Program-made: the position numbers and the translations under genes | NCBI GenBank assembly: GCA_043803945.1 | Contig: JAZDJN010000067.1 | Coordinates: 1-26,156, forward strand | DNA: 26,156 nt | Source: a bacterium | GTDB lineage: Bacteria; Bacteroidota; Ignavibacteria; UBA10030 | Reading direction: 5' to 3' | The notes under the pieces: generated by a model | Told to the model about the DNA's origin: nothing | Database searches by the model: none | The model's input: only the letters and a program-made list of their open reading frames with translations | Part shown: piece by piece, positions 884 to 26,156 of the stretch | How positions within the stretch are numbered: the stretch's first letter is position 1 | Layout of the letters: every line of letters begins with the position of its first letter

Positions 884-886
884 TAA

Positions 887-1435: not shown

Positions 1436-1503
1436 TCCATCAATGAGGAGGTGTTCTGATACCTCCAAACTTCCTATATCGGATCAATCTTCCACTTATC
1501 GTT

Positions 1504-1944: not shown

Positions 1945-1951
1945 AGAGTCC

Positions 1952-2785: not shown

Positions 2786-2788
2786 TTC

Positions 2789-5665: not shown

Positions 5666-6001
5666 ATGAAGCTTTTTCTATTACTCTTCTTAATCTTGTT
5701 ACCGATAGGATTGATGGCGCAAACAAGTGCGCGGGGTATAGCACTCGTAAGTGCAATCGTTGTTCCGGCTGTCTGGGTAGAAGTGTCCCCGTCCGAAAAA
5801 AATCCCTCTTCAAAAATTGTGGCAAATCAGTCCTGTCACGAGATTACTTTTCAAGGTTCCGCGACTATTCAAGTTGAGTTTCAGGATCATCAATCGATCC
5901 AGCAAAAGAATCTTTCTTTGAAGGCTGGCATAAGTACCAGTGTACATCTTCCATCGCAGAAAAAGACTCAGACCATTCGTATTACCCATCTCAGTAATTG
6001 A
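5666..6001 (+). CDS. Small secreted protein with a pilin donor-strand-like N-terminus
   Basis: Clear signal peptide MKLFLLLFLILLPIGLMA|Q. Mature start QTSARGIALVSAIVVPAV resembles the pilin N-terminal strand. No pilin C-terminal motif. Confidence 0.7.
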   Translation: MKLFLLLFLILLPIGLMAQTSARGIALVSAIVVPAVWVEVSPSEKNPSSKIVANQSCHEITFQGSATIQVEFQDHQSIQQKNLSLKAGISTSVHLPSQKKTQTIRITHLSN

Positions 6002-6231: not shown

Positions 6232-6327
6232 CTTCCATCGATATCGTAAGTGGACATTTCATCGGATTATTATAGCAACCCCTAGTAATGGGAGAAGTCC
6301 ATTTTTTTTTAAGTGAAAGGTAACTGT

Positions 6328-6735
6328 ATGAAACCTGTCAGAATTCTCATCGCCGACGATCATAAAGATTTTCGCAGTGTGGTTGAGAGGTTTCTCCGCA
6401 ATCTTCCATCTGTAATGGTTGTCGGCGAGGCTTCCGATGGCGTGGAAGTTGTTGAGAAGGTCGAGGAATTGAAACCCGATCTCGTGTTGATGGATATCGC
6501 GATGCCCCAGCGCAGCGGACTCGAAGCGACGCGCATCATCAAGCATCAGTGGCCGGGTGTGCAGGTCATCATCACAACAATGTATGACTATCCGATCTAC
6601 CGGATGCAGGCGCAAGAGGTGCATGCGGATCAATTCGTACTGAAGTCGGCATTGAAATCGAATCTCGAATCTGTCCTTGGCATTCCGCCGAATGGTACAA
6701 AAACAGAAGAATTCGTACCGCCACTTATCAAGTGA
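6328..6735 (+). CDS. Stand-alone response-regulator receiver protein (NarL/FixJ-type REC, no HTH)
   Basis: ATG 6328 follows GAAAGG. Motifs ILIADDH, VVGEASDG, PDLVLMDIAMP (phospho-Asp), Thr in IITTM and Lys in FVLKS. The protein ends shortly after the REC domain. Confidence 0.9.
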   Translation: MKPVRILIADDHKDFRSVVERFLRNLPSVMVVGEASDGVEVVEKVEELKPDLVLMDIAMPQRSGLEATRIIKHQWPGVQVIITTMYDYPIYRMQAQEVHADQFVLKSALKSNLESVLGIPPNGTKTEEFVPPLIK

Positions 6736-6814
6736 TATCCGTCCATTAAGTCAGAGTCAACAATGATTGCGACGGATAGAATACCATATAATTCAATTCA
6801 GAAAGGAGATCAGC

Positions 6815-7219
6815 ATGTCTGCTCTCAAAGTGCTCGTTGTAGATGATCACGCAGGATTTAGAAAATCACTGGCTAAATTTCTTCAGTCACAACGGAATGT
6901 CGAGGTGGTCGGAGAAGCAGTCGATGGTGCAAATGCCATTGCACAAACAGAACGACTGAAACCGGATCTTGTCATTCTCGATCTGGAGATGCCTGATCGT
7001 GATGGATTTGAAACGGCTCAGGTCATTAAGCGACAATACCCGGGTACATACCTTGTTCTTCTCTCGATGCATGGGAATGACATCTATCGGCTCAAAGCTC
7101 GTCAATGCATGGTCGATGGATTTATTCACAAAACCCACTTGAAGGAGGGTCTTCTGATGATTCTTCGAAATCGAGAAAACAACATGGTGTCTACTGCACA
7201 GTATGCAAGTGTTGCCTAG
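6815..7219 (+). CDS. Stand-alone response-regulator receiver protein (NarL/FixJ-type REC, no HTH)
   Basis: ATG 6815 follows AAGGAG. Motifs VLVVDDH, VVGEAVDG, PDLVILDLEMPDRDG, Ser in LLSMH and Lys in FIHKT. No output domain. Confidence 0.9.
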   Translation: MSALKVLVVDDHAGFRKSLAKFLQSQRNVEVVGEAVDGANAIAQTERLKPDLVILDLEMPDRDGFETAQVIKRQYPGTYLVLLSMHGNDIYRLKARQCMVDGFIHKTHLKEGLLMILRNRENNMVSTAQYASVA

Positions 7220-10300: not shown

Positions 10301-13300
10301 CAATGATTTTGAGGTAGCGCTTACGGGAAATCACTCTGCGTACTTCGTATCAGTCAATGCGCCAGGCAATTCTGGAACAACATTACTCGATATCGGAACA
10401 TTTTCCCTGAGTATCGGAGGTACAGGCCTGAATATTGAGGGAAATGATGCCGATGATCGCATTGCACGCGTACGCGTTGCAGGCGGAACACTGTCGGTAT
10501 CGGATAACATTCGTTTTATTGCAAGCACCGATGCCAGGGTCGTACTGGACATCAGCTCCGGTGCGAGTACACTTAATATCGGGCGTGCGATGGTAAAGAA
10601 CACTGCCGGAACGTTCTCTCCCGGCATCTCAAGCACTGTCGTGTTCAATGGTTCATCCGCCCAATCGATTAATCTCTCGGGCTTCACGTATGCCAATGTG
10701 ACGGTGAATAATAACGCCGGAATCTCACTGCTTGGAAATGTGACGTCGGCTAACATAGCCGGAAATCTTCGTGTAGTGGGTGGCACACTCAATAACAATG
10801 GATACTCTATAAATGGAGATCCTCTCAAGACATTTGAAGTAGCAAACGGCGCAACGTTTATTCTCGGTTCTACCTCGGCATTTCCAACCGGGTTTGGGAC
10901 GGTCTCACTCGGAGCGACAAGTACCGTCAACTATAACGGTACCAATCAGACAATTAGTGAAGAGTTATATGGAAATCTGACACTCGGTGGGAGCGGCAGC
11001 AAGACGATCCAATCGCCGCTTGCCATCCAGAGAACACTCCATCAGACAGGAACTACAACCTCGTCGCTTTCCTCGACTTCAGGGTACGATATCATTGTCG
11101 GGAAGGTTTTGATTGACGGAGGAACCTTTATTGACAACGGTCGCACGATCGAGGTTACCGGAACCGGATCCGGAACATGGACAAAAACGGGTGGGACATA
11201 TACAGCAAACGGCACCACGGTATTTTCCGGCAGTGCACCGGAGATCGGGGCATCGAATTTTAGCACGCTCCAAATCTATGTCGGATCCGGAAATGTTGCA
11301 ACTGCTGTTGGTGCATTGACTCCGAATACTCTCACCCTGACGAGCGGAACATTTGATCCCGGATTGTACACCCACACAGTAAGCTCAAACCTCTCTATCG
11401 AGGGGGGATCAAAATTGTTAGTTCGCTCAGCATTGTACAGTGGAAATTACTCCCTCATTCCCACTATGATTCAATCGGGCAGTACGATAGAATATACAGC
11501 TACAGGTGCAACGGTTGCCGCTGTCTCACCGGAACAGTATGAGAATCTCACAATCAGCGGCACAGTCACGGGTGCTTCTACTGCCACTGTCAACAGTACG
11601 TTCCTGGTCTCCGGAACGTTTACACCATCGGGTGGGACGATTACTTTCGGAAACGGGTCATCGCTTAGCGGTACAGGTACTACGCAATTTTCAAGTCTCT
11701 CCATTGCAAATAGCGCAACGGTCACGGCATCAAATGTCTTTAGCGTTGGTGGAACATTGTCCGTCGGCTCGGGAGCAAGCTTCTCTCCCTCGAACACGGT
11801 GACTCTGAACAGCGCCACGATCGTAAACTCAGGAACGCTCACATTCCAAAATGTTTCGCTTATCGGTACGGTCACTGCGAACACCAGCTTTACGCTTAGT
11901 GGATCGATGTCGGGTGCCGGTACTCTGAATGCAACCAGCGGGACAATCACCTTCGGTAACGGATCATCACTCGCAACAAGCGGGAGTGTCTCCTTCAATA
12001 ATCTGACCATCAATGGTACCGTTGTAGCGAACACTTCGTTTGGTGTGAAAGGGACGTTAAGTGTTAATGCAGGTGGTGTTCTTAATCCTACGAGCGGCAC
12101 TGTTACCCTGTCGAATGGAAGCAGTATCAGTAACAGCGGTACTCTCTCATTCAAAAACCTTAGCAGCAGTGGTACAGTCAACATCAACTCAAACTTTACA
12201 CTCAAAGGAACCTTTACTAACACCGGTACGATTAATCAGACCTCGGGGATATTCTCGACGGCCGCCGGCGCAGTGATGAATAACAGTGGTACGTTATCGC
12301 TCAACAACCTTACAATCGGCGGTGCAACCACATTGAACGATAATGCAACTGTGAGTGGTACTCTGACCCTGGACGCGAATCTTACGGTGGTTGGAGATTC
12401 ACTAACAATGTCTTCCAGCGCAGTTACCGGTGGAACCGCTGATGTCATCGGCAGAATCCGTCGTACGCCCTTCACAACGGGTACGGCATATACGTTCGGT
12501 AATCAGTATACGACGATCACCTTCAATAGTGCAACCGTACTGCCGAGTTCAATTGTTGTGAAGGCCGCGATCGGTTCCTCCCCGATTGAAAAATCCGACG
12601 CTGTCCACCGGTACTACGAGATTACCGAAACGGGAGGAAGCGGATTTAATGCGACGCTCCGGCTGCATTATCTCGACTCCGAATTGAATTCAAACTCGGA
12701 GGGAATACTCTCACTCTGGAAAAAGAGCGGTACCACGTATGTCGAGGAAGGAAATATTTCTCGAGATCAGACCGCGAATTGGATTGAGCAATCTGCTGTC
12801 GATACGCTGACGACAACCTGGACGCTGGCAGTTGAGACGCCGACTGGATTCACAGCGGCCACAGACGGTTTCTGGGATGCGCCTGCAACCTGGGGTCTCA
12901 CCGGCACTCCGCAAGAGGGCGTGAACTACCCCGGTGTCAACGACAATGTCAACATCAGTAATAACTATACTGTCACGCTCCGTGCCAACCAGTCGGCAAA
13001 GAAAATTATCTTGGTCTCTGCCGGCGCAAATGGTACGTCAACATTGGCTGTCGGTTCGTATACACTTACTGTAGGCACAGGAGGAATCGAACTTCGCGGC
13101 GGCCGCCAGAACGGACGAAAAGTTCTGATCACGGTCGGCGGTGGTATTCTGAATATTGCGGGGAACATCTTTATCGATGCCAAATCAATCGCGCAGGCTC
13201 AAATTGATCTGACTGGGGGAGTCGGTAGCCGAATAAATATTACGGGAGATATTTCGCGGAATGACGACAACGACGGAGCGTTAACATTCAATTCTACCGG

Positions 13301-16300
13301 TATTATCAATTTCAATGGAACATCCGGCGGCCAGACTCTCGATGTTACCGGATCAATCTATGCAAATATTTATCTCAATAATACTTCGAGCGCAGGTGTC
13401 GTACTCGATGGCGCAATCACGACGGTAAATGTTATCGGCGATATTCGTTTACAATCTGGTACTTTTAATACCAATGGATTCGCAAATGCGGGGAATACCG
13501 GTAAAACGTTTGAACTCACAAATGGCACAACGCTCTACCTCTCCGGTGTGAGTACTTTCCCCACCGGTTTCACTCCATCGATCGGAAGTACCAGTACAAT
13601 CAATTATAGCGGTGGTGCCCAGACCATCTCCGATCAGGCCTATGGACATCTGACACTGAGTGGAACCGGTGCCAAAACTATCAACTCCTCCATCAGTGTT
13701 ACAGGCAACTTTACTTATTCCGCAACTGCCACAACCTCACTCTCTGCGACCGCCGGACAGAACCTGACCGCCAGCATGTTTACACTGTCGGCTGGTACGT
13801 TTATCGATAGTGGTCGAACAATCACCGTGACAGGTACTGGTGGACAAGTTTGGACAAAAACGGGCGGTACTTTCACAGCGACAGGTATTGTGAATATTAC
13901 CGGAGCGGCAGCGCAAATCGGATCCTCGAATTTTGCCACACTCAGTATCAACGTCGGCATTGGAAATACGGCTCTCGCGAATGGTGCGTTGAGCACCGCC
14001 ACCTTTACCCTCACGACGGGCGCGTTTGATCCGGGCACGCATACACACACCATCTCCGGATCATTTACGGTTGGTGATGGAACAACACTTCTGGTACGCA
14101 CAACAACGTTTCCCGGAAACTATAGTTCTAATCCCACCACTCAGCCCGGAAGTATTATCGAATATACCAATGCGGCCGCTTCGATCAGTAATGCGTTCAC
14201 CTATCGCAATCTGAAAATTTCCGGTAACGTTACCGGGGCAGCATCGGCAACAGTGATCGAACAATTTATCGTGTCAGGCTCGTTTACACCTGCCACGGGC
14301 AAGATGATCTTTAATAATGGTGCATCGATTGTCAATAGCGGTGCTGTAACATTCCGCAAACTACAAATATCGAATAGCGCGACAGTCACTACCGCAAGTT
14401 CCTTCAGCATCACCGATTCATTGATCGTGGGACAAAATGCCATCTTCCAGCCGTCCGGGACTGTCTCCTTTGTAACAAGCGGTTCCATCGATGTCAACCC
14501 TACATTGTTGAACGAGGGCATCCTGACATTTAATAATCTCTCAATTTCAGCGCCTGTGCATACCTCCTCATCGTTCACGATCGGAGGCACATTGGACATT
14601 CTCGTGAACGGCGAATTGAATCCAACCGGAGGCACGACAACGATGACAGGCGGTTCGTCGATCGTAAACTCCTGGATTCTTTCCTTCTATAAATTGCGCA
14701 TTACAGGTTCGGTCACGGCGAATACCAACTTCAGTGTCAAGGATTCACTCATCGTCAGTGCATCTGGTACATTGCAGCAGACAAGCGGTACGGTGACCCT
14801 GGAGAATGGTGCCAAAGTTGGCAACAGCGGATCGCTCACATTCTACACCTTATCCATTGCGGGCGCAGTGTCTGCCAATACCAGTTTTTCTATTGCATCT
14901 TCACTCTCAGTCACTTCCTCAGGAAATCTTACTTCGACGGCAGGAACTGTGACGATGAACAGCGGTACTTCCATTTCCAATCTTGGTACACTCAATCTGA
15001 ATAATCTGACGATTGCAGGCGGGACCATTACGGGGAATAATAACTTCTCCATGCAAGGCGTCTTGCAATTGGATGGAAATTTAGCAATGGGCTCGAATAC
15101 ATTCGAGTTTGGCAGCACAGCAACTAGTGGTGGAACTGGAGATGTGACTGGAAGAGTAAAACGTGCTCACGTATTTACTGCTTCCACAGCGTACGCATTC
15201 GGCAGTCAGTATACAACGGTAACATTCACATCGCTCACATCAGCACCTGGATCGATAACTATCAATATCATCAAAGGGTCTACACCGCCGGAAAAAGTGG
15301 ATGCCATTCAACGGTACTATGATATTACAAGTTCGGGTGGAACGTATGCCGCAACATTGCGTCTCCGCTATCTGACAGGCGAGCTCAACGGCAATGATGC
15401 ATCAACACTATCACTCTGGGCCAAAGTCGGTGTGAGTTCCTATGCCGATTCAGGGAAAACCACTAATGATCTGGTAAATAATTGGGTGGAAGATGCCGGC
15501 ATCACGTCGATTGTAGGCACCTGGACGCTCTCCCGGCAAAATCCAATCGGCTTCACCGCTGTTGCAACCGGAAATTGGAATGACCCGGCAACCTGGGGAC
15601 GGAGTGGTATACCGACAGAAGGAGTGAATTATCCCGGTCCGAGCGATAGCGCCAACATCATCAACAACGTGACGGTAACACTCACGGGTAATCATTCTGC
15701 CAAGAACCTCCGGGTGGAAGCTCCAACGCTCGATGGAACTTCTCGGTTGGATGTCGGCGCTTACACATTGAATGTCGGATCGAGCGGATTGAAGATAGCA
15801 GGCGGAACCTCCGATGCGAGGATTGCCACAGTGACGATAGCAAGTGGTAAGATTTCCGTCCTTGGAGATGTGACGTTACAGGGAAGCAGTGCAGTACGGT
15901 CCGTTCTCGACATGAGCCTGGGTGCAAACAGCATTCTGGAAGTTGGTGGATCGCTCTCGAAATCCGGATCGCCGACATTTACTCCGGGCAGTTCAGGCAT
16001 TGTGAACTTCAATGGAACCACAGCCGGACAGATCGTCAATGTTACGAGCTTCGTGTATACCAACCTTCGATTGAATAATACCAGCGGATCCGGCGTTACC
16101 TTAAGTGCTGCGATAACAGGAACGAACGTCACCGGTGACGTTCGAGTCCAAAGCGGCATTTTCACGAACAGCGGCTATGCAATTACAGGAAATAGCGGGA
16201 AGACGTTTGAAGTCGCGAACGGTGCGTCGTTCTATCTCACCGGAAGCAGTGCCTTCCCGACCGGATTTGGATCGATCTCTCTAGGTTCCACAAGCACGGT

Positions 16301-19300
16301 AAATTACAGCGGAGGGAGCCAGAGCATTTCCAACCAGTCGTATGGAAACCTTACCCTGAGCGGAACCGGAAATCACAACATCACTTCCTCGCTCTCTGCC
16401 GCAGGCACATTAACCTACTCCAGTTCCGGTGCAACATCGCTTTCCGGAACAGCGGGACACAACGTAACGGCAGCAAAGTTCAACCAGACATCCGGTACGT
16501 TCAATGTTAATAGCAGGACGATTACCATTACGGGAACCGGTGCAAGTACATGGTCAAAGACTGGCGGTACCTTTGCTGCTACCGGTGAGGTGATCTTTAC
16601 CGGTTCAGCTCCGGAAATTGGTGCATCGAATTTCGATCTCTTGCGTATCAACCTTGCTTCCGGCGGCGTTGCCACAGCAACGGGAATCTTGTCCGCGACG
16701 AATTTTTACCTCACATCAGGAACGTTTGATCCCGGTACGTCGCTTCACACCATTACAACAAACTTTACACTTGCCGCTGGAACAACAATGAAGGTGAAAA
16801 CCTCAACGTTTGGCGGTAACTACTCGAAAGCACCGACGACAATTACGACTGGTTCTACGATTGAGTATACAAATACGACTTCGACTCTTGCGACGCTCAC
16901 CTCGCCGACCTACTCAAATCTCAAAGTGAGCGGAACGGTTACAGGATCTTCAATCGCTTCGATTAACGACACCTTAATCGTGAGCGGCACCGTTATCAAT
17001 CCGGGTGGCACAATAACGCTGAACAACGGCGGACGAATCCGCGTCGACGGTGGAAGTCTCACCTTCACCAACCTTACGACTGCTGCAAGTGCAACGGCGG
17101 GATCGGCATCAAACTTTGCTGTGGCCGGTACTCTGACGGTTGGCGCTGCGAGCACCGCATCCTTCACCGGAACTGTGACGATGAATGGCGGTTCGATAAT
17201 CTCCAACACCTCGGGAGCCCTGACCTTTGGTACACTTTCAATTTCCGGAACGGTCACAGCGAATACGAACTACACGATTTCTACCGCCCTCTCCGTTGGA
17301 TTGAGTGGTGTGCTGAGTCCCACAAGCGGCACCGTGATCTTCAGCAATACATCTTCGATAACGAATCAGGGAGTCCTCGAGCTATATGACGCGACATTTA
17401 GCGGTATAACCTCGACCTCTTCGAATTTCTCCGTGAAGAATGCGTTCAGCGTTTCAGCAAGCAGCAGCTTTGCGGCTTCGGGCGGGACAGTCTCAATGCT
17501 CAGCAGTTCCTCCATTACGAATTCCGGTACACTGACATTCTCTGGTTTGCGCATTGACGCCGGCACGGTAACCTCTTCGAGCAGCTTCAGTATCTCAGGC
17601 TTATTGACCGTTGCATCCGGAGCGACCTTCAATCCTGCGGCTCCCTGTACGATTACAATGAACAATGGCGCCTCAATCACGCGCGATGGAACATCAACAT
17701 TCACCAACCTTGCGATAGCTGCCGGAACGGTAACGGGAAATACCAACCTCGCTGTCAGTGGAACACTGACACTCAACGGCACCCTTGCAATGGGATCGAA
17801 TATCCTCGATCTCACGGCGGCTACTGCGGCAATTGCCGGAACCGGAGATGTAACGGGTAATGTCCGCCGTCAGCACGCGTTTGCATCCTCAACTTCGTAT
17901 GCGTTTGGCAATCAGTTTACGACACTCAACTTCGCGAGCGGCACGTTGCCGACTTCGATCACGTTCACGATAGCGCTCGGAACAGCTCCGGCGGAAAAGA
18001 CCGATGCCATCCAAAGAAAATATTCCGTCAGCGTGACTGGTGGCTCAGGATACTCTGCAACTCTTCGCCTCCATTATCTGGACACCGAGCTGAATGGAAA
18101 TACGAGTTCAACACTGACACTCTGGAATAAGTCAGGAGCATCATATGCCGATCAGGGCAGGACCGGCTCGGTGGATGAAACGAATAAGTGGGTCGAGAAA
18201 GCATCACTGACCTCATTGATTGGCGATTGGACGCTGGCCAATCAACCCTCGGTGGGATTTACAGCAACGGTGACTGGTAATTGGAATACCCCTGCAACAT
18301 GGAGTCTTACCGGTTCTCCGCAGGAGGGTGTGAACTATCCGGGTCCGACGGACATCGTAAATGTTAATGGTGGTTTCACCGTTACCTTGACGGCAAACCA
18401 CTCGGCACAGCGGGTGAATATCACCGGTACGATCGCAGGAGCTGCAATAATCAATGTTGGTGCGAATACACTCAGCGTCGGCAGCGGAGGGATCACACTT
18501 ACCGGCGGAAGTACCGATGCAAGGTACGCCTGCATCAACGTCGATGGTGGAACTCTCAATGTGACAGGCAATATTGTTTATTCGACAGGAATAGCAGCGA
18601 GGGCGGTCGTAAATCTGGGAGGTGTTGGAGGATCTGCAGCGAGCACAATGAATCTCGGCGGTGTGATGTCCAAGAGTACTGCCGGCACATTCACACCAGG
18701 TAGTGCCAGCGTTGTGAACTATAACAGCTCGGCGCTCAATCAAACGGTCGATGTCATCAACTTTACGTACGCCAACCTGCATATCAATAATATGAATGCA
18801 TCGGGTGCCTCACTCAACGCTGCAGTCACGGCAGTAAATGTGACCGGCAACCTGCGTGTCCAATCGGGACAATTCTCGAACAGCGGTTTTGGGATTGCAG
18901 GGAATCCCACTATGACATTGGAGGTTGCAGCGGGTGCGACATTGAAGCTCACCGGAACATCAACGTTCCCGACTGGATTCGGAACGATCTCGTTGAATGC
19001 CGCCAGTACAGTAGAATATAATGGCGGGGCTCAGACTGTTACCAACCAATCGTACGGAAATCTCATCCTCTCCGGCAATGGAAGTAAGACAATTGCCTCA
19101 GCACTGAACGTCGGAGGGCGGTTCACATATAATAGTTCTGCGGCAACTTCATTAGCCGCGGGCGGATTAACTACTTCGAAATTTACACTGGCTTCCGGAA
19201 CCTTCTCAGCAAACAGCGCAAAGATTACAGTCACTGGAACCGGCGACAGCGTATGGATAAAATCGGGCGGGACATTTACAGCAACTGGTAAAGTGAGTTT

Positions 19301-21998
19301 CATAGGAGCGCTGCCGCAAATCTATTCCTCCAATTTTGATACGCTCGAAATTGCCGTTGGAGCAAGCGGACGCGCAGTTGCCTCGGGCATCCTCAGCTCT
19401 TCGCAAATGTTCTTAACGACCGGCACATACGATCCGGGTGTGTTCGGACATACGATCGTCAATAACTTTATTCTCTCTAATGGCACAACGTTGCTGGTTC
19501 GGGGTGCAGAATTTGTAACGAATTACAGCAAGGTCCCGACGAATGTCGGTGCATCCAGTGCCGTTGAGTATAGCAGTAGTGCAATCCAGACGATCAACTC
19601 GACATTTACGTATGGGAAACTTCGACTCGAGGGCGGCGGCTCCAACGCGAAAAGCGCAGGTGGAGCATTGACGGTGTTGGATAGTACGATCATCAGTTCA
19701 GGCTCGACGTTTAACGGTGTATCGTACAACCATCGGATACGCGGAACCTGGAGGAATGAAGGTACCTACGTCTCCAGCACGGGCACCATCACACTTAATG
19801 GAACTGCTGCACAAACGATCGCCGGAACGAGTGCCACCTCCTTCAATAATCTGGTGATGAACAATACCGCAGGTTTAACGATCAGCACAAGTCCCACCGT
19901 CATCGGTACCTTGACCTTCACGAGTGGCACGATCAACACTGGATCGAACAAGATTACCATTGCTGCGTCGGGAGTAGTGTCACGGACCAGCGGTCATGTA
20001 GTCGGCAACTTCGAAAAATATATTGCCGCCGGTGCAACCACCAGGACATTCGAGATTGGCGATGCAACGAATTATACTCCTGCACAGATTGCTTTTTCGA
20101 GTGTCTCCACAGGTGGCTACCTCACCGCCCGCACAGACCCTGGAGATCATGCCGATATCGCGAACTCTGGAATTGATCCTGCCCTCAGTATCAACCGGAC
20201 ATGGACAGTGACAAATAACGGAATCAGCTTCACGACGTATGGTGCGACATTTACATTCGTTCCGGGTGATCTCGATGGCGGTGTTGTTACGGGTGACATT
20301 GTTCTTGCCAAACTGGATGGCATAACCTGGACCAGCCCGACGATGGGTACTGTTACAGCGACGACTATGCAGGCGACAGGGATTACTGGCTTCAGCAAAT
20401 TCCAGGGGGGCAATCCGAGTGTTGCCGATTTCACCTCGATCACAACAGGCAATTGGAATTCCGCTTCGACCTGGGATAAAAATAGAGTCCCGAAGAAAAA
20501 TGATAGAGTCACCATTGCGGCATCGCACACAGTAACGTTGACGGATGCCAGGGAGATAACAAATTTGAGCGTGGCTGCTACTGGTGAATTTGCCATTGGC
20601 ACAAATACGCTGACCGTTTGGGGCAATATTATCCTGAATGGAACCTGGAGCGGCAGCGGTATGATCGATTGGAGAAACAACGGTACATCACTGGGTGGCA
20701 CCGGCACGACGAGCGGCACGCCCATGCTTCAGGCCAATGGCGATAAATCCATTGATGTTTCTGCAACCCTCACACTCTTCCGCATTGATATACCTGCTGC
20801 AAACGCCGTGACAAATAACGGGGCAATTCAGCTTACACGCCTGACAGGCGGGGTTGCGGGGTCTACCTGGATCAATGCCGCTGGTTCAAGCTTATCAGTT
20901 ATTCAAGATCTTCTGACAACCGGTACACTCACGACCCTTGGTGTGGGGAATACACTCACCTACAGTGGTAACACGGCACAGACGGTTAAAGCTATCACAT
21001 ATCAGAATATTGCATTCAGCGGTTCAGGTACTAAAACTCTTTCTGCCGATCTGACTGTACAGGGAGATTTCATAAACTCGTCAACGGTATCAGTCGGAAC
21101 ACATTCATTGTCTATAAGTGGTACAAGGACAAACTCCGGAACAGTCCAGTTTGCGGGGGCGGCGAATGGAGTGCTCTTTACGGATGGTACGGTAGAGTAT
21201 AACGGCACGAGTGTTACTCAAACAATTGCGAGCGGTATATACAACAACCTCACACTCAGCGGATCGGTAGGAAAGACTGCCGGCGGCGATGTAACTGTTA
21301 ATGGGAATTTCAACAACTCCGTTACGACTTCGGTAGGCAATTCTCTTCTTGTAATATCCGGTACGAAGACAAATAGTGGCACAATGCAATTTGCCGGTGC
21401 GAGTAATGGCATCTTGTTCGCAGATGGCACAGTTGAATACAACGGAACTACTTTAGCACAAACAATCACCATCGGGACGTATAATAATCTCACACTCAGC
21501 GGCACAACCTCTAAAGCAATTCCGGCAGGGACATTAGGGATTGCTGGAATATTCACGGTATCGGGAGTCTCTGTCGATGCTACATCGAATAATTCGACGA
21601 TAGACTATTTTGGCAATGGCGCTCAGTCTATTGCCGCAATCGCCTATCATCATCTGACACTGAGAAATAGCGGAACTAAAACTTTTTCCTCAGGGACAAC
21701 TTACATCGGTGGTAACCTAACGATCAGCGCTCCTGCCGCTGCCAATGCAACGACAAATTCGTCAACGATTGAGTATAACGGTACAACGAGCCAGTCAATT
21801 GCCGGTATGACGTACCATCTGCTCAACTTCTCAGGCAGCGGATTAAAAACTCTTTCAGCAACGATGACTGTAAACTCTCACCTGACTGTCAATGCAGGTG
21901 CATCTGTGCTGGTCACCAACACAGGTCTTATCAATCTTCAGGGTGATTTGTTGAATGATGGATATTTCAGAAATGATGGAACGATAATTCCATTTTAG
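7302..21998 (+). CDS. Giant secreted repeat protein (4898 aa), predicted beta-helix/beta-sandwich modular adhesin or filament terminal subunit
   Basis: Uninterrupted 14.7-kb ORF. Hydrophobic signal region ends ALG|Q (Q at 7509); the exact start is uncertain. Thr/Ser/Gly/Asn-rich. Six G8-like W-x-x-x-x-T-W...P...D-x-V-x-I heads and recurring Y-x-G-x-x-Q...Y-x-x-L-x-LSG-x-G-x-K motifs. Confidence 0.9.
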   Translation: MVRRRSISPTQDRRSAATHREAVWLIGLVLSLIENLLERFSRSTTLSRRSLLPFVLLLFVLGMTAEALGQAVFQANAGGGLWNNSGTWTLASGTDADGIPDADDQVTIAGGNLAVTLNGNEACSSLLVQNTGANSTSTRLEIGSYTLAVAGNVTITGGGGNGSKIAQINVGNGILIVSGNLTISAVKGSELNLNLGTSTLNISGSMTGGTNAVLNAGTASTVNLNGTSAQTLNLVDFIFANVTLNNSAGVTANAAITATNITGDLRVETGTFASGGFAIAGNGAKTFEVAGNASFITTTVNPSAFPTGFSISLNANSTVDYAGLTGTTQTVSDQTYGNLKLSGGGTKSAGSAISVAGTLTQTEATTTATLSGTTGHDLTVGKFDLQAGSFNDNGRTITVTGTGSAVWTKAGTFNPTGTTIFTGAAPQIGASNFAALQINVGSGNSALANGILTVTNFALLSGTFNPGLFAHTISTNFSLGSGSTLLVRTALFTGNYSKNPTSVANGSTVDYQGTNSSLANFTHSNLIVSGSITGSSNATVDGAFTVTGSFTPSVGAVRLGNSTIVNSGTLQFRGLELTAGAFVQSSSNFLIDSAMTLLSGASFSPTGTITLNNGVTLANAGTMIFHNLTLNSGALIANTDYSVNGTLSGAGTFNATAGTVTFGNLSSLTISGLSFQNLTFSGAVTANVDMTVKGTLTIGGAGVFNPSSGTVTIPAGGSIVNSGSLSFNNLNTSGTGSVTMNTSFTLKNSFTNMSTITINQTSGVLTTISGASINNSGSLTLSNVTIGGTTTANGTVTVNGAVTLNGNLTVSGGALIMGSSATTNGTFDIIGGVRRGGFIIGTTYSFGNPFTTLTFDTGGTLPDSITYTIQIGSAPVEKTDAVQRSYSIAILNGSGYSASFHLHYRHGELNGNSESAMYLYRKNGSVYQPAGRSAFNTTDDWIGLNNVSTIAGDWAIANKPAHIFTASNDGAWNNPATWGLSGTPSEGETYPGPVDSAYIGNDFEVALTGNHSAYFVSVNAPGNSGTTLLDIGTFSLSIGGTGLNIEGNDADDRIARVRVAGGTLSVSDNIRFIASTDARVVLDISSGASTLNIGRAMVKNTAGTFSPGISSTVVFNGSSAQSINLSGFTYANVTVNNNAGISLLGNVTSANIAGNLRVVGGTLNNNGYSINGDPLKTFEVANGATFILGSTSAFPTGFGTVSLGATSTVNYNGTNQTISEELYGNLTLGGSGSKTIQSPLAIQRTLHQTGTTTSSLSSTSGYDIIVGKVLIDGGTFIDNGRTIEVTGTGSGTWTKTGGTYTANGTTVFSGSAPEIGASNFSTLQIYVGSGNVATAVGALTPNTLTLTSGTFDPGLYTHTVSSNLSIEGGSKLLVRSALYSGNYSLIPTMIQSGSTIEYTATGATVAAVSPEQYENLTISGTVTGASTATVNSTFLVSGTFTPSGGTITFGNGSSLSGTGTTQFSSLSIANSATVTASNVFSVGGTLSVGSGASFSPSNTVTLNSATIVNSGTLTFQNVSLIGTVTANTSFTLSGSMSGAGTLNATSGTITFGNGSSLATSGSVSFNNLTINGTVVANTSFGVKGTLSVNAGGVLNPTSGTVTLSNGSSISNSGTLSFKNLSSSGTVNINSNFTLKGTFTNTGTINQTSGIFSTAAGAVMNNSGTLSLNNLTIGGATTLNDNATVSGTLTLDANLTVVGDSLTMSSSAVTGGTADVIGRIRRTPFTTGTAYTFGNQYTTITFNSATVLPSSIVVKAAIGSSPIEKSDAVHRYYEITETGGSGFNATLRLHYLDSELNSNSEGILSLWKKSGTTYVEEGNISRDQTANWIEQSAVDTLTTTWTLAVETPTGFTAATDGFWDAPATWGLTGTPQEGVNYPGVNDNVNISNNYTVTLRANQSAKKIILVSAGANGTSTLAVGSYTLTVGTGGIELRGGRQNGRKVLITVGGGILNIAGNIFIDAKSIAQAQIDLTGGVGSRINITGDISRNDDNDGALTFNSTGIINFNGTSGGQTLDVTGSIYANIYLNNTSSAGVVLDGAITTVNVIGDIRLQSGTFNTNGFANAGNTGKTFELTNGTTLYLSGVSTFPTGFTPSIGSTSTINYSGGAQTISDQAYGHLTLSGTGAKTINSSISVTGNFTYSATATTSLSATAGQNLTASMFTLSAGTFIDSGRTITVTGTGGQVWTKTGGTFTATGIVNITGAAAQIGSSNFATLSINVGIGNTALANGALSTATFTLTTGAFDPGTHTHTISGSFTVGDGTTLLVRTTTFPGNYSSNPTTQPGSIIEYTNAAASISNAFTYRNLKISGNVTGAASATVIEQFIVSGSFTPATGKMIFNNGASIVNSGAVTFRKLQISNSATVTTASSFSITDSLIVGQNAIFQPSGTVSFVTSGSIDVNPTLLNEGILTFNNLSISAPVHTSSSFTIGGTLDILVNGELNPTGGTTTMTGGSSIVNSWILSFYKLRITGSVTANTNFSVKDSLIVSASGTLQQTSGTVTLENGAKVGNSGSLTFYTLSIAGAVSANTSFSIASSLSVTSSGNLTSTAGTVTMNSGTSISNLGTLNLNNLTIAGGTITGNNNFSMQGVLQLDGNLAMGSNTFEFGSTATSGGTGDVTGRVKRAHVFTASTAYAFGSQYTTVTFTSLTSAPGSITINIIKGSTPPEKVDAIQRYYDITSSGGTYAATLRLRYLTGELNGNDASTLSLWAKVGVSSYADSGKTTNDLVNNWVEDAGITSIVGTWTLSRQNPIGFTAVATGNWNDPATWGRSGIPTEGVNYPGPSDSANIINNVTVTLTGNHSAKNLRVEAPTLDGTSRLDVGAYTLNVGSSGLKIAGGTSDARIATVTIASGKISVLGDVTLQGSSAVRSVLDMSLGANSILEVGGSLSKSGSPTFTPGSSGIVNFNGTTAGQIVNVTSFVYTNLRLNNTSGSGVTLSAAITGTNVTGDVRVQSGIFTNSGYAITGNSGKTFEVANGASFYLTGSSAFPTGFGSISLGSTSTVNYSGGSQSISNQSYGNLTLSGTGNHNITSSLSAAGTLTYSSSGATSLSGTAGHNVTAAKFNQTSGTFNVNSRTITITGTGASTWSKTGGTFAATGEVIFTGSAPEIGASNFDLLRINLASGGVATATGILSATNFYLTSGTFDPGTSLHTITTNFTLAAGTTMKVKTSTFGGNYSKAPTTITTGSTIEYTNTTSTLATLTSPTYSNLKVSGTVTGSSIASINDTLIVSGTVINPGGTITLNNGGRIRVDGGSLTFTNLTTAASATAGSASNFAVAGTLTVGAASTASFTGTVTMNGGSIISNTSGALTFGTLSISGTVTANTNYTISTALSVGLSGVLSPTSGTVIFSNTSSITNQGVLELYDATFSGITSTSSNFSVKNAFSVSASSSFAASGGTVSMLSSSSITNSGTLTFSGLRIDAGTVTSSSSFSISGLLTVASGATFNPAAPCTITMNNGASITRDGTSTFTNLAIAAGTVTGNTNLAVSGTLTLNGTLAMGSNILDLTAATAAIAGTGDVTGNVRRQHAFASSTSYAFGNQFTTLNFASGTLPTSITFTIALGTAPAEKTDAIQRKYSVSVTGGSGYSATLRLHYLDTELNGNTSSTLTLWNKSGASYADQGRTGSVDETNKWVEKASLTSLIGDWTLANQPSVGFTATVTGNWNTPATWSLTGSPQEGVNYPGPTDIVNVNGGFTVTLTANHSAQRVNITGTIAGAAIINVGANTLSVGSGGITLTGGSTDARYACINVDGGTLNVTGNIVYSTGIAARAVVNLGGVGGSAASTMNLGGVMSKSTAGTFTPGSASVVNYNSSALNQTVDVINFTYANLHINNMNASGASLNAAVTAVNVTGNLRVQSGQFSNSGFGIAGNPTMTLEVAAGATLKLTGTSTFPTGFGTISLNAASTVEYNGGAQTVTNQSYGNLILSGNGSKTIASALNVGGRFTYNSSAATSLAAGGLTTSKFTLASGTFSANSAKITVTGTGDSVWIKSGGTFTATGKVSFIGALPQIYSSNFDTLEIAVGASGRAVASGILSSSQMFLTTGTYDPGVFGHTIVNNFILSNGTTLLVRGAEFVTNYSKVPTNVGASSAVEYSSSAIQTINSTFTYGKLRLEGGGSNAKSAGGALTVLDSTIISSGSTFNGVSYNHRIRGTWRNEGTYVSSTGTITLNGTAAQTIAGTSATSFNNLVMNNTAGLTISTSPTVIGTLTFTSGTINTGSNKITIAASGVVSRTSGHVVGNFEKYIAAGATTRTFEIGDATNYTPAQIAFSSVSTGGYLTARTDPGDHADIANSGIDPALSINRTWTVTNNGISFTTYGATFTFVPGDLDGGVVTGDIVLAKLDGITWTSPTMGTVTATTMQATGITGFSKFQGGNPSVADFTSITTGNWNSASTWDKNRVPKKNDRVTIAASHTVTLTDAREITNLSVAATGEFAIGTNTLTVWGNIILNGTWSGSGMIDWRNNGTSLGGTGTTSGTPMLQANGDKSIDVSATLTLFRIDIPAANAVTNNGAIQLTRLTGGVAGSTWINAAGSSLSVIQDLLTTGTLTTLGVGNTLTYSGNTAQTVKAITYQNIAFSGSGTKTLSADLTVQGDFINSSTVSVGTHSLSISGTRTNSGTVQFAGAANGVLFTDGTVEYNGTSVTQTIASGIYNNLTLSGSVGKTAGGDVTVNGNFNNSVTTSVGNSLLVISGTKTNSGTMQFAGASNGILFADGTVEYNGTTLAQTITIGTYNNLTLSGTTSKAIPAGTLGIAGIFTVSGVSVDATSNNSTIDYFGNGAQSIAAIAYHHLTLRNSGTKTFSSGTTYIGGNLTISAPAAANATTNSSTIEYNGTTSQSIAGMTYHLLNFSGSGLKTLSATMTVNSHLTVNAGASVLVTNTGLINLQGDLLNDGYFRNDGTIIPF
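7518..20429 (+). repeat. Five diverged tandem protein modules within the giant ORF
   Basis: Module heads at 7518 (FQANAGGGLWNNSGTW), 10191 (FTASNDGAWNNPATW), 12849 (FTAATDGFWDAPATW), 15552 (FTAVATGNWNDPATW) and 18258 (FTATVTGNWNTPATW), with a sixth head at 20430 (FTSITTGNWNSASTW). Spacings are 891, 886, 901, 902 and 724 aa. Confidence 0.9.
21000..21479 (+). repeat. Tandem 240-bp (80-aa) duplication in the C-terminal region of the giant ORF
   Basis: ISGTRTNSGTVQFAGAANGVLFTDGTVEYNGT versus ISGTKTNSGTMQFAGASNGILFADGTVEYNGT. Unit-initial Tyr codons fall at 21000, 21240 and 21480. Confidence 0.85.
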
Positions 21999-22070
21999 GT
22001 GATCGAACTATGAAAAAAGAATTTGAGATCAACTCATATGAATAGATTCATTACGGAGAGGAGTACTTCC

Positions 22071-23462
22071 ATGAAAACCTTCTTATCTCACAGAGTGAGC
22101 AAAGCAACCCCATTGTTTTTGTTGCTCACACTTGCTCTAAAAGTGGGATTCGCACAAGGAGTATTGAAGAATAACGGTACGTTCGTTAACACCGGTACCT
22201 CGACTTATACCCGGATTGAAAATTTCAAGACATCAGCAGGAACAATTCTCAATTCGGGTACGCTGAACAGCACCACGACATTTCTCAATCAAAGCGGTGG
22301 ATTAAACGGAAAAGTACTCAATTATATTGGCTCGGGTGGTGGGACGATTAATGTCACCACTAATCTCGATAACAACGCAGCCGGAGCGATCTTTGATAAT
22401 GATAGTCTGACACTTTCAACGGTATTGCGTGTTGGTGGATCCATTACGAATGCAGGGACATTCGATACAGACACAGGGAAAGTAGAGTACAATGGAGCCG
22501 GTGTGCAGACTATTATTGCTACAACGTATGGGGCTCTCGTCACGAGCAATGCAAGCGCGAAATCAATTGCCTCTGGAACGACGACCGTGAGGGATTCCAT
22601 ACGTATCGCCGGTTCGTCAAGCATCGTAACGAGTACTAATACTCTTTCTTTTAGTGGAGCGACTTTTACACTGCAAGGAACAGGCGCCCTGGATGCATCG
22701 TCCGGTACAGTGAATTATTCCGGTGACCGAGACCAGCAGATTATCGCCGGTACATACGGCACACTGATCACTTCCGGCTCAACGACTGCAAGAACGAAGA
22801 CAGCCACCGGTAATGTGACACTCAGTGCTTCCGGTTCCCTGACAGTGGGGAACAATGATACTCTCAGTGTAACAGGGAATCTGAATCTTTCCGCTGCGGG
22901 TGTGACGCTAACGAATAACAATGTCATCAAGATGGGTGGTAATGCGACATTTGTTGGTACGATTACTAGTGTCGGGTCATTCTACTATGCCGGTTCGGGT
23001 TCACAGAACATTGGTACAAATACTTACGCAACTCTTCGGCTGGGTGGCAGCAGCACAAAGACATTTCCTAACGGGACTGTGGCAGTCACGAGTAATTATA
23101 CGATTGACAATGGGAGTGGCAGCCGGGATTACACTTCCAATACGAGCACCTTCCAATTTGCAGGAACCAGCGGTACACAGACGATCTCCGGGCTCTCCGA
23201 AACATTTTACATACTTCAGTTTGCCGGTGCGGCCACGAAACCGATTTCAGGGACATCGCTTGGAGCGGCACGGCTTGATATTCTCGCCACCAGCGGGCTC
23301 GTCACGAATAACGTAACCACGATGACGTTGACTAATATTTCTAACATTAGCATGACGGTAGCTTCTGGAGCATCATTCCAGAACAACCAGGCGATTTTAT
23401 TTAACGGTGATATCGAAAACGATGGAGTCTTTACAAACGCAGGTACGGTTACAGCTAACTAA
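22071..23462 (+). CDS. Secreted beta-helix repeat protein related to the C-terminal region of the giant protein
   Basis: ATG 22071 follows GAGGAG (22058-22063); signal peptide ends GFA|Q. Repeats VEYNGAGVQTIIATTYGAL, VNYSGDRDQQIIAGTYGTL and YYAGSGSQNIGTNTYATL. Ends GDIENDGVFTNAGTVTAN. Confidence 0.85.
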   Translation: MKTFLSHRVSKATPLFLLLTLALKVGFAQGVLKNNGTFVNTGTSTYTRIENFKTSAGTILNSGTLNSTTTFLNQSGGLNGKVLNYIGSGGGTINVTTNLDNNAAGAIFDNDSLTLSTVLRVGGSITNAGTFDTDTGKVEYNGAGVQTIIATTYGALVTSNASAKSIASGTTTVRDSIRIAGSSSIVTSTNTLSFSGATFTLQGTGALDASSGTVNYSGDRDQQIIAGTYGTLITSGSTTARTKTATGNVTLSASGSLTVGNNDTLSVTGNLNLSAAGVTLTNNNVIKMGGNATFVGTITSVGSFYYAGSGSQNIGTNTYATLRLGGSSTKTFPNGTVAVTSNYTIDNGSGSRDYTSNTSTFQFAGTSGTQTISGLSETFYILQFAGAATKPISGTSLGAARLDILATSGLVTNNVTTMTLTNISNISMTVASGASFQNNQAILFNGDIENDGVFTNAGTVTAN

Positions 23463-23467
23463 CGATG

Positions 23468-23754
23468 AACATTCACAACAATATGAAAGGAGGTTCCTAT
23501 GCGAACCGATCAATGCAGACCGCCTTAGGTCAAGGGGAGTCAGCTTCAGCGTTGCTCTCTGAGCAAGAGCAATGTATCTATTCACTATTAATTATTTACT
23601 CGCCTAAAGGTAACGCATGGCGGGCAAGCTATTCACAATTTCAAAAGGAGCTACAACAATGTCGTACAAACAAGAAACACCACAGGGAAAAAGCAACAAG
23701 CATTCACAATTCACCCACAATTCACAAACACATTCTAAAAGGAGTACAGTCATG
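23468..23754 (+). promoter_or_regulatory. Leader region with three ATTCACAA...AAAGGAG...ATG units
   Basis: Units end in ATG at 23499, 23659 and 23752, each 7-8 nt after an AAAGGAG. ATTCACAA or close variants occur at 23471, 23580, 23631, 23702 and 23720. Confidence 0.55.
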
Positions 23755-25377
23755 AATACCAAGTCAATCATCGCAGCCATCGTTACCCTCTTCTTAATCG
23801 TCGGAGTGGCATCTGGACAAAAAATCAAGAACAAATCAACATTTACCAACAATGGTATAATGTCTGTAGGGACGTTCCAGAATTATAATGGAGCTGCTGG
23901 TACATTGGACAACAATAATGGAGCAACCCTCACAGTCTCGGCGCTTCTAGATAACAAGTATAACGCAGCCACAGTCAATAACCTGGGTACGATCACTATG
24001 ACAGGGGCAAGTACATTTGATAATAGTTTGTCAGGTGGAATCGTCTCCAACACAAGTAACGGTCTAATCAACATGTCAGGTGCCACCAGTGTTTATGATA
24101 ACACAGCTGGAACTACAACAAATTCTACCACAGCAGCGGGTAAGGGATTCAGGTTTGTAAATGCAGCTGGAGGGGCATTAGTGCCAGGTTCGGGTTTCAC
24201 AACTTCCTCGGGTAGAGTTGAATATGCCGGTACGGGTGGAACAGTCTATTCAGGAGTTGCAACTGGTACATATGGTAAACTCGAAATTAACACATCAGGA
24301 ACACGAACGATGGATAACTCAATCTCTGTGGGAGATGTGACCCTGACTGCCGGAACCTTCGATGTCGGTAGTGGCTATAAGTTGACAGTAACAGGGGTTG
24401 GAGGGGTAGCAGGAGCTGGTGCTTTGACAGCTAATGGGAGTACGACCACTGAGGTTGATTATGCAGGTCCCGATGGACAACCGATTAAATCTACTACGTA
24501 TGCAAAACTGACTCTGAGTGGTGCTGGCACACGACAAAAGACGATCAGTGGCGATGTGACCGTTGCTAATGCACTTAAAATCGATGCGGGTAATGAACTT
24601 CTTATTCCTGAGACCCCATCTCTCTATACCCTAACACTCAACAGCAGTTCAGTCCTGGACAACTCAGGTTGGGTTCGTATTTATGGCGACATTTCTTTTG
24701 GATCCTCGATGACTCTCACAGCCATTGGTTCATTTGAGTATGGACGAGTAGCTGCAGGTCAAGTTGTAAAGCCATTTTCATATGCTAATTTGACTTTGTC
24801 GGCTGGAGCAAAAACGATGGGTGTCGCTCCTGCTGATGCGATCTCAGTTTCTGGTACATATAATGCAGGCGCAACGGCTGATTATCGCAGCAACACAACG
24901 TCATTCACTTATGCAGGCGGTGGTGCCCAAGATGTCCGTGCCGGTAACTACTATACTTTAGCGATGACGACGGGGGGAGCAAAGTCGATTGGAGCAGGCG
25001 TTGCTGTTGAAGCAAAAACTGTTACAGTTGCCACTGGTGCTCTTACTATTGATGGAACAGGGTCATTACAAGTTGGCTATACTGGACAAAATGGAAGCAT
25101 GTCGATTTCGAGCAACTTCACTAATAATGGTGACTTAACACTCGGACACAACAATGCTTCACCGACATTTTATGCATCCCTCACGTTCTCTGGTGCAACT
25201 CTTACGAATAACTTAAACATAAGAGTATTTGGCAGTGATGCGTTGGGAACGTACTTCTTACAGAACGATGCAACAACTGAATTAGTCAACAGTGCTACGG
25301 GCGTCATTGCATTAAAGGCTGCGGATTTTGTGAACAATGCTTCATTTTCGAATGCTGGCAGTATCACGGTTGAATAG
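23752..25377 (+). CDS. Secreted beta-helix repeat protein, candidate major filament subunit
   Basis: ATG 23752 follows AAAAGGAG and gives a canonical signal peptide MNTKSIIAAIVTLFLIVGVASG|Q. Repeats VEYAGTGG...YGKLEI, VDYAGPDGQPIKSTTYAKLTLSG and FTYAGGGAQDVRAGNYYTL. Ends ADFVNNASFSNAGSITVE. Confidence 0.85.
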   Translation: MNTKSIIAAIVTLFLIVGVASGQKIKNKSTFTNNGIMSVGTFQNYNGAAGTLDNNNGATLTVSALLDNKYNAATVNNLGTITMTGASTFDNSLSGGIVSNTSNGLINMSGATSVYDNTAGTTTNSTTAAGKGFRFVNAAGGALVPGSGFTTSSGRVEYAGTGGTVYSGVATGTYGKLEINTSGTRTMDNSISVGDVTLTAGTFDVGSGYKLTVTGVGGVAGAGALTANGSTTTEVDYAGPDGQPIKSTTYAKLTLSGAGTRQKTISGDVTVANALKIDAGNELLIPETPSLYTLTLNSSSVLDNSGWVRIYGDISFGSSMTLTAIGSFEYGRVAAGQVVKPFSYANLTLSAGAKTMGVAPADAISVSGTYNAGATADYRSNTTSFTYAGGGAQDVRAGNYYTLAMTTGGAKSIGAGVAVEAKTVTVATGALTIDGTGSLQVGYTGQNGSMSISSNFTNNGDLTLGHNNASPTFYASLTFSGATLTNNLNIRVFGSDALGTYFLQNDATTELVNSATGVIALKAADFVNNASFSNAGSITVE

Positions 25378-25650
25378 TTTTAAGAAAAAGATAATTTACT
25401 CTACTTGGAGGGAATGCTAGCATCAGAAGTAGCGCACCTCAAATATGAGTGTTAGTGGAAATCATCATTAAAGAATGATGAAGGAATCATAGGTAGAACA
25501 TATGTACTATCAATGAGACCAAACATATGGAACAACCAATAAGGACCATACCGGCGCGTCCGCACGCGCAGGTTTACGAACTGGCGTTACCTCGTGGGAG
25601 TACTCTGTCCATTAAGCTGGGAGGTCCGGAGGATTCGCCTAATAAGTTGA

Positions 25651-25700
25651 GAGGGAGCTCCGCCATTAAGACGGGCAAGTCCGCTCCCAATCTTCGCGGG
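25651..25700. repeat. REP-like palindromic element A, copy 1
   Basis: GAGGGAGCTCCGCC...ACGGGCAAGTCCGCTCCCAATCTTCGCGGG matches the copy at 26104-26156. Confidence 0.7.
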
Positions 25701-25718
25701 TGTAGTCCGCCCATCCTG

Positions 25719-25975
25719 GAACCTTCCGAAGGTCACAGAGGTGGCCTTAGGAACCTTCGGAAGGGCGGTAAGTTCGCACGCGAAACAATTTCCTGCGCAC
25801 GCGGTGATCCGAAAAACAAACACCCTCTCCTCGTAGGAGAGGGAAAGGGTGAGGTTGCTCCACGCGGTGATCCCGGAAAGATTGAACCTTCCGAAGGTAA
25901 CAGCGGTGACCTTAGGAACCTTTGGAAGGCCGGTAAGTTCGCACGCGAAACGATCGCGAATACGCGCGGTGATCC
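25719..25975. repeat. Two 92-bp direct repeats (REP-like element B) at 25719-25810 and 25884-25975, flanking a third hairpin type
   Basis: GAACCTTCCGAAGGT...CCTTAGGAACCTT(C/T)GGAAGG.CGGTAAGTTCGCACGCGAAAC...CGCGGTGATCC occurs twice with a 165-bp period. Between the copies lies CCCTCTCCTCGTAGGAGAGGGAAAGGGTGAGG (25823-25854). Confidence 0.8.
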
Positions 25976-26103
25976 AAACCTTTTGAATGTCGGTCATCGT
26001 GAGGTTGACGTGGGAACCCCATGGTTGAAGGTAACCTTCAGCTATGGAATATCTCAGAGGAAGGTTACCTTCTTCAGCGCAGAACCGCCTCTGTACCTAT
26101 TGG

Positions 26104-26156
26104 GAGGGAGCCCCGCCAAAATAACGGCGGGCAAGTCCGCTCCCGACCATCGCGGG
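26104..26156. repeat. REP-like palindromic element A, copy 2 (reaches the window edge)
   Basis: GAGGGAGCCCCGCCAAAATAACGGCGGGCAAGTCCGCTCCCGACCATCGCGGG, with nested stems GGGAGC/GCTCCC and CCCGCC/GGCGGG. Confidence 0.7.

Follow-up and report, generated by a model that had tools for sequence, protein, structure and literature searches.

Three secreted β-helix proteins, encoded one after another on the forward strand of contig JAZDJN010000067.1 (assembly GCA_043803945.1; Bacteroidota, Ignavibacteria), end in the same 18-residue coil, which is flush with the stop codon and is called the tail below. The window analysed was this whole contig, 26,156 nucleotides in length. The tail was real and above chance, and in the small proteins it was mirrored by a cognate coil of opposite charge at the mature N-terminus. 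Neither Pfam nor NCBIfam covers the family, the exact truncation, the mirrored oppositely charged ends or the conserved locus. We propose, with somewhat less than even confidence, that the proteins dock head to tail through this coil and thereby assemble an anchored hetero-fibre, the binding itself being a prediction.

The C-terminal coil of three paralogous β-helix proteins

The tail was found at the ends of all three translated open reading frames (ORFs), at 21942..21995 in the giant protein P0001 (4898 amino acids; 7302..21998), at 23406..23459 in the small protein P0002 (22071..23462) and at 25321..25374 in the second small protein P0003 (23752..25377), all on the forward strand. The open frame of P0002 spans 22023-23462 with the ATG at 22071 as its probable start (the 463-residue form, P0005), and that of P0003 spans 23617-25377 with a probable ATG start at 23752 (the 541-residue form, P0059). 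The stop codons of P0001, P0002 and P0003 were TAG, TAA and TAG, with more in-frame stops behind each, so the three ORF ends are true ends. The strict consensus matched only these three tails among the 20,797 six-frame ORFs (60 amino acids or longer) of the 5.54-Mb genome, each time three residues from the C-terminus, and the register-exact ending described in the original prediction thus agreed with both coordinates and counts. A 22-column hidden Markov model (HMM) of the tail, built from 53 relatives with none from the window, scored 27.4 bits (E 2.3e-6) for P0002 and 12.9 bits (E 0.079) for P0003, the most divergent of the three, among the genome ORFs; the giant scored 10.0 bits in a direct scan and the top unrelated genome ORF 7.6 bits. 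With a 40-column tail profile made from 14 tails of the DNA references (A3), the scores of P0001 and P0003 were 64.7 and 56.6 bits. A reading of the tail as a calcium-binding EF-loop-like element (D-x-E-x-D-G) was set aside: P0003 does not have the acidic residues, and strands occupy this stretch in the model described below.

Judged from their alignments, the three proteins are paralogs. Residues 119-460 of P0005 aligned with the ~300 C-terminal residues of the giant, tail included (BLASTP E 9e-15), and P0005 aligned with its homolog P0059 from the signal peptide onward (BLASTP E 5e-15), while the extra size of the giant was made up of N-terminal repeat modules. The fixed distance to the terminus, which had been taken to point to selection because the proteins differ about tenfold in size, was confirmed for the three ORFs, but the size difference is no independent evidence of selection among paralogs. 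The giant consisted of about five super-repeats of ~870 amino acids, each starting with a W-x-x-P-A-T-W-G-like motif, and its last ~500 amino acids differed from these and were homologous to the small proteins; its single Pfam match, Amnionless, was sub-threshold (17.1 bits against a cut-off of 30.4). Giants opened with a different, Trp-containing motif instead of an N-terminal coil.

The AlphaFold2 model of P0005, computed from a 39-sequence alignment, was all-β (predicted local distance difference test score (pLDDT) 91.8; predicted template-modelling score 0.86), with opening strands at residues 31-33, 37-40 and 43-46 and closing strands at 435-438, 441-444, 447-450, 453-456 and 459-462 of 463. 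In VIA-align, which compared the model with 48,161 chains, right-handed β-helices were matched at Z ~11-12.4 over residues 28-463, among them phage tailspikes, EtpA, HMW1, pertactin, VacA p55 and PL6 lyases, in agreement with the β-helix fold assigned in the original prediction. Foldseek found nothing in the PDB at E<=1e-3 for this model, the ESM Atlas gave unnamed or generic β-helix clusters only, and a PDB sequence search with the family or module profile (A1) gave no match, and hence no sequence relative of a solved structure. The small tail protein is thus modelled as a right-handed parallel β-helix from the mature N-terminus to the last residue, and the tail as its final minimal coil, with three four-residue strands, Asn/Gly turns and three N-x-G-x-h-x hexads. 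Since the last predicted strand reaches residue 462 of 463, with nothing after it that could act as a cap, the tail would be a bare end. The last 499 amino acids of the giant were modelled with a mean pLDDT of 61.3, rising to 89-94 in the final 60 residues, where strands recurred with a period of six (477-480, 483-486, 489-492 and 495-498 of 499).

All tail proteins carried Sec signal peptides, and Pfam and NCBIfam scans detected no C-terminal domain (CTD), barrel or anchor in them. For P0001-P0003, no family of either database was above its cut-off, and the 70-100-residue C-terminal sorting domain of the type IX secretion system (T9SS; Por_Secre_tail or CHU_C) was not found. The Autotransporter barrel PF03797 was likewise not found by Pfam, which sets the proteins apart from classical type Va secretion, nor was the two-partner secretion (TPS) domain PF05860, and no Omp85/ShlB-type gene was detected among the window ORFs by Pfam or NCBIfam.

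Relatives in the databases kept both the motif and its distance to the stop, as had been expected of orthologs under the original prediction. There were 54 relatives of P0002 (28-100% identity) and six of P0003. Of 60 proteins examined for their ends, which did not include the C-terminally cut fragment P0044, 56 ended in N-x-G followed by exactly five residues, and the remaining four had 4-7 residues after N-x-G (P0050, one fewer; P0056 and P0063, one more; P0064, two more). In the 39-sequence alignment the tail was ungapped and flush, with G446, G452, N456 and G458 invariant and D447, D451 and V462 almost invariant.

Outside these relatives the same coil was also found in other positions. When 1.84 billion representative proteins were searched with A3, 79 matches were obtained (E<=1e-3), of which 37 were flush with the C-terminus of proteins 28-4616 amino acids long, and 42 lay inside the protein or close to its N-terminus, where one protein often contained many stretches (up to 31). 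Proteins with an internal coil included a true autotransporter, T9SS cargo and membrane-anchored proteins, and P0005 itself held an internal cognate coil at about residues 117-148. The internal coils continue into G-T-V-x-F-x-G-x-x-x-Q-x-I, and by this sequence pattern the tail is the opening coil of a widespread β-helix module and not a C-terminal signal as such. The suggestion of a new C-terminal sorting signal, taken as a general tag, was therefore abandoned: the genome had only three tail carriers, all paralogs in one locus, against 149 Por_Secre_tail matches (with SprA present at 746 bits), and the motif is internal elsewhere.

What is peculiar to the lineage of the window is the position of the coil. 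A1 matched in 47 of 401 sampled genomes of the phylum, including 13 of 17 in the taxonomic family of the window (f1) and, within its order, 9 of 10 in the sister family f3, and A3 matched in 38 genomes of the sample. Among the tail matches whose locus could be read as far as the stop, all 22 in f1 and f3 lay 0-1 residue from it (ORFs of 430-4644 amino acids), whereas none of the 14 in nine other families of the phylum did so; 41 matches were examined, five of them in no retrieved locus, with the three from the window excluded and the 13 weakest of 57 listed matches left out. The C-terminal enrichment expected of an HMM search hence failed across the protein library and held within the order of the window. 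The f1 and f3 proteins are cut off directly after the opening coil of the module. A search for longer homologs yielded no fused form but one protein, P0138 (1538 amino acids, tail plus four residues), which is weak evidence.

Two further observations concern the small-protein genes. In many homologs (P0008, P0013, P0017, P0019 and others; loci L069-L079) the frame opens 30-45 codons before the signal-peptide Met with an extension that begins MKTQ and has many N, Q, K, S and H residues, and the KRS immediately before the inner Met resembles a translated ribosome-binding site; P0003 has a variant of this extension (23617-23751) and P0002 has none. Either a conserved leader or a lengthened signal region may be encoded here. 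Three identical contigs of 251-315 nucleotides (23428-23742, 23867-24117 and 25418-25661) were present in one groundwater metatranscriptome run, which indicates presence in an RNA library and is not proof of transcription, and two further runs contained no window contigs.

Oppositely charged ends and the conserved downstream neighbour

The N-terminal end of the small proteins resembled the tail. The first coil of mature P0002, residues 29-47 from a conserved Gln (22155..22211, forward strand), was basic and cognate to the tail, and the first coil of mature P0003, residues 23-40, also from a Gln (23818..23871, forward strand), contained three lysines and aligned with the N-terminal coil (N-coil) of P0005 in BLASTP. 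The mature chain probably begins at Gln29, one residue ahead of the first coil, because Gln29 was nearly invariant in the 39-sequence alignment and section 16 of PMC5837995 gives a "Q-rule" value of 77% for Ignavibacterium album. The best non-self match of the tail profile in P0005 was the window at residue 30, with a score of 34.2 against a background of -11.8 +/- 8.8, followed by windows at 22.8 and 21.5. Among the 418 18-residue windows of the mature small protein, the tail ranked second in conservation and the mature N-terminal window third, the first rank being held by the window one residue upstream of the tail. From these comparisons the mature small protein appears to be bounded by two cognate coils, both of them bare in the model, in which strands run from residue 31, just after the mature N-terminus at Gln29, to 462 of 463.

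The two ends also differed in charge. The net charge of the tail was on average -2.51 and negative in 70 of 72 tails, and that of the N-coils was +1.87 in the small proteins (39/39 positive) and +2.28 in the downstream neighbour described below (17/18 positive). Across the 418 windows of the small family, the C-terminal ones were the most negative (-2.7 to -3.1; the tail of the P0002 family averaged -2.77) and the N-terminal one was the most positive (+2.46), compared with a mean of -0.22 +/- 0.98 for all windows. Internal cognate coils of other families had a mean charge of -1.0 (n=14, with rough anchoring).

The gene order around the tail proteins was conserved. Retrieval with the 11 closest sequences (A2) gave six related loci, all from Ignavibacteria-type metagenome-assembled genomes, and 13 extra loci (L069-L081) were also available. 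Tail-bearing genes occurred in adjacent sets of two to four, and the order of a giant, one to three tail proteins and a large neighbour with a T9SS-type CTD was present in all 18 loci that extend far enough downstream. L002 and L006 are too short on this side for the neighbour to be judged, and in L074 its C-terminus is cut by the contig. In the genome of the window this neighbour is a protein of 2069 amino acids on another contig (C65, 88947-95156, reverse strand), which matches the gene after the small protein in L001, L003, L004 and L005. C65 was linked to the window by the synteny in L001, L003 and L004 together with a shared repeat: the palindromic repeat spacer at the 3' end of the window (25665..26156) contains two copies of a 95-nucleotide unit 165 nucleotides apart, and a 97%-identical copy lies at 96475-96569, within the repeat region near the end of C65 (95877-96569). 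These palindromic repeats probably caused the assembly break. Rfam had no match in the window, the repeat spacer included. In related loci a spacer of ~0.4-1.5 kb with no convincing ORF separates the last tail gene from the anchor gene.

The neighbour opened with a coil directly after its signal peptide in all 18 loci, 12 of them with the strict pattern [Q/G]-[D/N]-[L/F]-x-N-x-G-x-h-x-N-x-G-T-h-[K/R]-[V/I]-[K/R] and six with variants of it, and the tail HMM matched its N-terminus only, the protein having no tail. Pfam scans of six neighbours gave, in every case, 3-10 Big_1 Ig-like stretches and, at the C-terminus, FlgD_ig above the cut-off. Por_Secre_tail was above its cut-off in one of the six (L069, 29.8 bits) and below it in four. 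For the neighbour of the window genome, FlgD_ig scored 41.8 bits (cut-off 27) and CHU_C 23.5, and Por_Secre_tail, with no match in the Pfam scan, reached 25.3 bits (cut-off 27) in the genome search only. The locus thus codes for a single tail-only protein, one to three proteins that combine an N-coil with a tail, and a single protein that combines an N-coil with a putative cell-surface anchor domain.

Proposed docking of the terminal coils and the alternatives

In the proposed docking, the bare acidic C-terminal coil would stack against the basic opening coil of the products of the next genes, one rung on the other. Its partners would be the small "adaptor" proteins, with an N-coil and a tail, and the downstream neighbour, in which an N-coil is followed by a stalk of Big_1 Ig-like domains and the T9SS-type CTD. 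The product would be a polar surface fibre running from the cell through the anchor and the adaptor or adaptors to the giant as the distal element. As one possibility, proteins without a CTD might cross the outer membrane by hitch-hiking on T9SS cargo; a limited literature search gave nothing specific on T9SS hitch-hiking or piggyback transport. The complete picture, in which a modular surface fibre docks itself together on a T9SS-anchored Ig-stalk protein and its CTD-less members may ride that cargo out, is more tentative than docking alone. According to PMC10727499, solenoids are usually capped, which prevents end-to-end association, and opposite charges are proposed to link the solenoids of ice-nucleation proteins end to end. 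Of the uncapped polymerisation face put forward in the original prediction, the bare last rung was retained as a predicted feature, but the conservation and charge of the two ends favour heterotypic docking on neighbouring gene products over self-polymerisation.

Several points weigh against docking. A coil that opens every module is expected at the start of any protein whose first module is complete, and the likeness of the N- and C-terminal coils may be a matter of this architecture. Part of the acidity of the tail, at the G-D and N-D positions, appears generic to the motif, although the terminal coils are more acidic. In related loci, several middle proteins have N-coils that depart from the tail pattern. 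The description of the end as uncapped rests on secondary-structure strings and alignment ranges, not on model coordinates, and the model of the giant was poor outside its last 60 residues, as the low mean pLDDT shows. The CTD-less proteins have no known way across the outer membrane.

The tail could also be a purely structural end, that is, a stable terminator or folding nucleus like the autochaperone segment of autotransporter passengers, with no intermolecular role; this explanation deserves weight, though we consider it doubtful. It fits the finding that both ends are the most conserved parts, as folding nuclei would be, the internal coils at module starts of unrelated surface proteins (31 stretches in one autotransporter passenger), and the differing N-coils of some middle proteins. 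What it leaves unexplained is the stop 0-1 residue after the coil in every order-level match, the opposite charges of the ends, which would promote end-to-end contact, and the cognate coil at the start of the adjacent cell-anchored neighbour in all 18 loci. Homotypic head-to-tail self-polymerisation through uncapped faces, into an amyloid-like filament, is very unlikely, even though the small proteins possess both a basic N-coil and an acidic C-terminal coil: giants have no N-coil, the anchored neighbour has no tail, and a homopolymer needs no conserved multi-gene order.

A dedicated secretion or sorting signal for these few proteins, read by terminal-strand recognition like that of the β-barrel assembly machinery (BAM) or the translocation and assembly module (TAM) or by a T9SS accessory protein, is unlikely. 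Such a signal would suit proteins that have a Sec signal peptide but no CTD, barrel or anchor and whose tail is flush with the carboxyl end, and the G-T-I-I-P-F end of the giant has a candidate likeness to the β-signal of outer-membrane proteins, which is a terminal aromatic residue in a Po-x-G-x-x-Hy-x-Hy pattern. The last residue was variable, however (Y 28, N 16, Q 10, G 10 and E 4 in 72 tails), and the fold is predicted to be a soluble helix rather than a barrel, so that the tail was rejected as an outer-membrane β-signal. The small number of carriers beside the many Por_Secre_tail matches and the generic internal use of the coil also count against a dedicated signal, as does the lack of a conserved transporter gene, the upstream usher-like gene being present in only one of five related genomes searched. 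Alternatively, an ancestral mega-adhesin running from a signal peptide to a T9SS CTD may have been split at module junctions, leaving the tail as the break point. The order of giant, small and CTD proteins is collinear with one long T9SS adhesin, and the breaks fall at module starts. A relic of gene fission is nevertheless quite unlikely to be the whole explanation, for the coil lies on both sides of each break and not on one, each product has its own signal peptide, and the arrangement and exact end are kept across two families at 28-55% identity. Fission is compatible with a docking role.

Docking, if true, would explain how proteins without an anchor or a T9SS domain join the cell surface, would provide a natural case of programmable end-to-end joining of β-solenoids, and would make the set of N-coil only, both coils and tail only a rule for the assembly order of such loci. 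The fibre, if true, would represent a novel route for the assembly and export of multi-protein adhesins in Ignavibacteria-like bacteria. Even if the coil were merely a structural terminator, a lineage-specific family and its end motif would be cleanly defined.

Genomic surroundings and comparison with known systems

Two receiver-only response regulators were encoded directly upstream of the giant (6313..7219, forward strand; Pfam Response_reg, 1.3e-25 and 2.6e-24). The pair also precedes the giant in L003, and one member lies at the cut 5' end of L002, which suggests dedicated regulation of the fibre locus. Further upstream, the region 353-5413 contained an atypical chaperone-usher-like cluster with three small DUF4402 proteins, of which one exceeded the Pfam cut-off and two fell short of it; a full-text literature search gave no paper on DUF4402. 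The chaperone position is taken by a secreted protein of ~270 amino acids with an inner start within 1739-2785. The outer-membrane protein of the cluster (874 amino acids) had no Pfam match and no match among PDB sequences, and its ESM-Atlas neighbours were named usher FimD/PapC (template-modelling score 0.53-0.54, Usher clusters). Behind the cluster, at 5666-6001, is a small secreted ORF. This DUF4402/chaperone/usher-like cluster was rejected as a conserved partner of the tail because the usher-like protein was present in one of five related genomes. After the anchor gene, 10 of the 13 extra loci encoded a conserved protein of ~250 amino acids with a C-terminal hydrophobic segment and a PP-x-[DE]-[LF] end; the one that was scanned belonged to no Pfam family, and the window contig stops before this gene.

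A limited literature search found no paper on the tail-protein family. The motif itself is an ordinary β-helix coil, and one of the closest structural likenesses was to the passengers of type V secretion (pertactin, Ag43, EtpA and HMW1), which likewise form a right-handed parallel β-helix with Asn/Gly turn ladders; VIA-align gave Z 12.0-12.4 for 8vba, 2iou_H, 2odl and 8cpk. The tail profile matched 31 stretches of one true autotransporter passenger, and some homologs of the tail proteins carry the source label "fibronectin-binding autotransporter adhesin". Unlike these passengers, the tail proteins stop at the helix and have no translocator, with neither an Autotransporter barrel nor a TPS domain detected by Pfam, and in structural comparison TPS domains (Z 12) score level with other helices.

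In chaperone-usher and type V pili, one free end of a subunit carries a conserved strand, by which the following subunit is completed or extended. Here, too, the upstream region contains a chaperone-usher-like cluster, but its usher-like gene is not a conserved neighbour, and whereas the subunits of strand-exchange pili have an incomplete Ig fold, the tail proteins are predicted β-helices. T9SS cargo occurs in the same group of organisms and in the same locus, where the downstream partner has a candidate domain of this kind, and both features are C-terminally flush. The T9SS CTD, however, is a β-sandwich of 70-100 amino acids present on ~140 ORFs of this genome, while the tail has 18 amino acids, is part of the helix and occurs on three ORFs.

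The terminal coils of curli and bactofilin matter for assembly, and the likeness of the tail proteins to curli CsgA and bactofilin was limited to weak fold or atlas matches. Terminal coils also matter for the assembly of ice-nucleation proteins, for which PMC10727499 describes end-to-end joining of basic with acidic coils. Unlike these end-to-end β-solenoids, the pairing proposed here would be heterotypic, between the products of neighbouring genes, and would start from a T9SS-anchored base.

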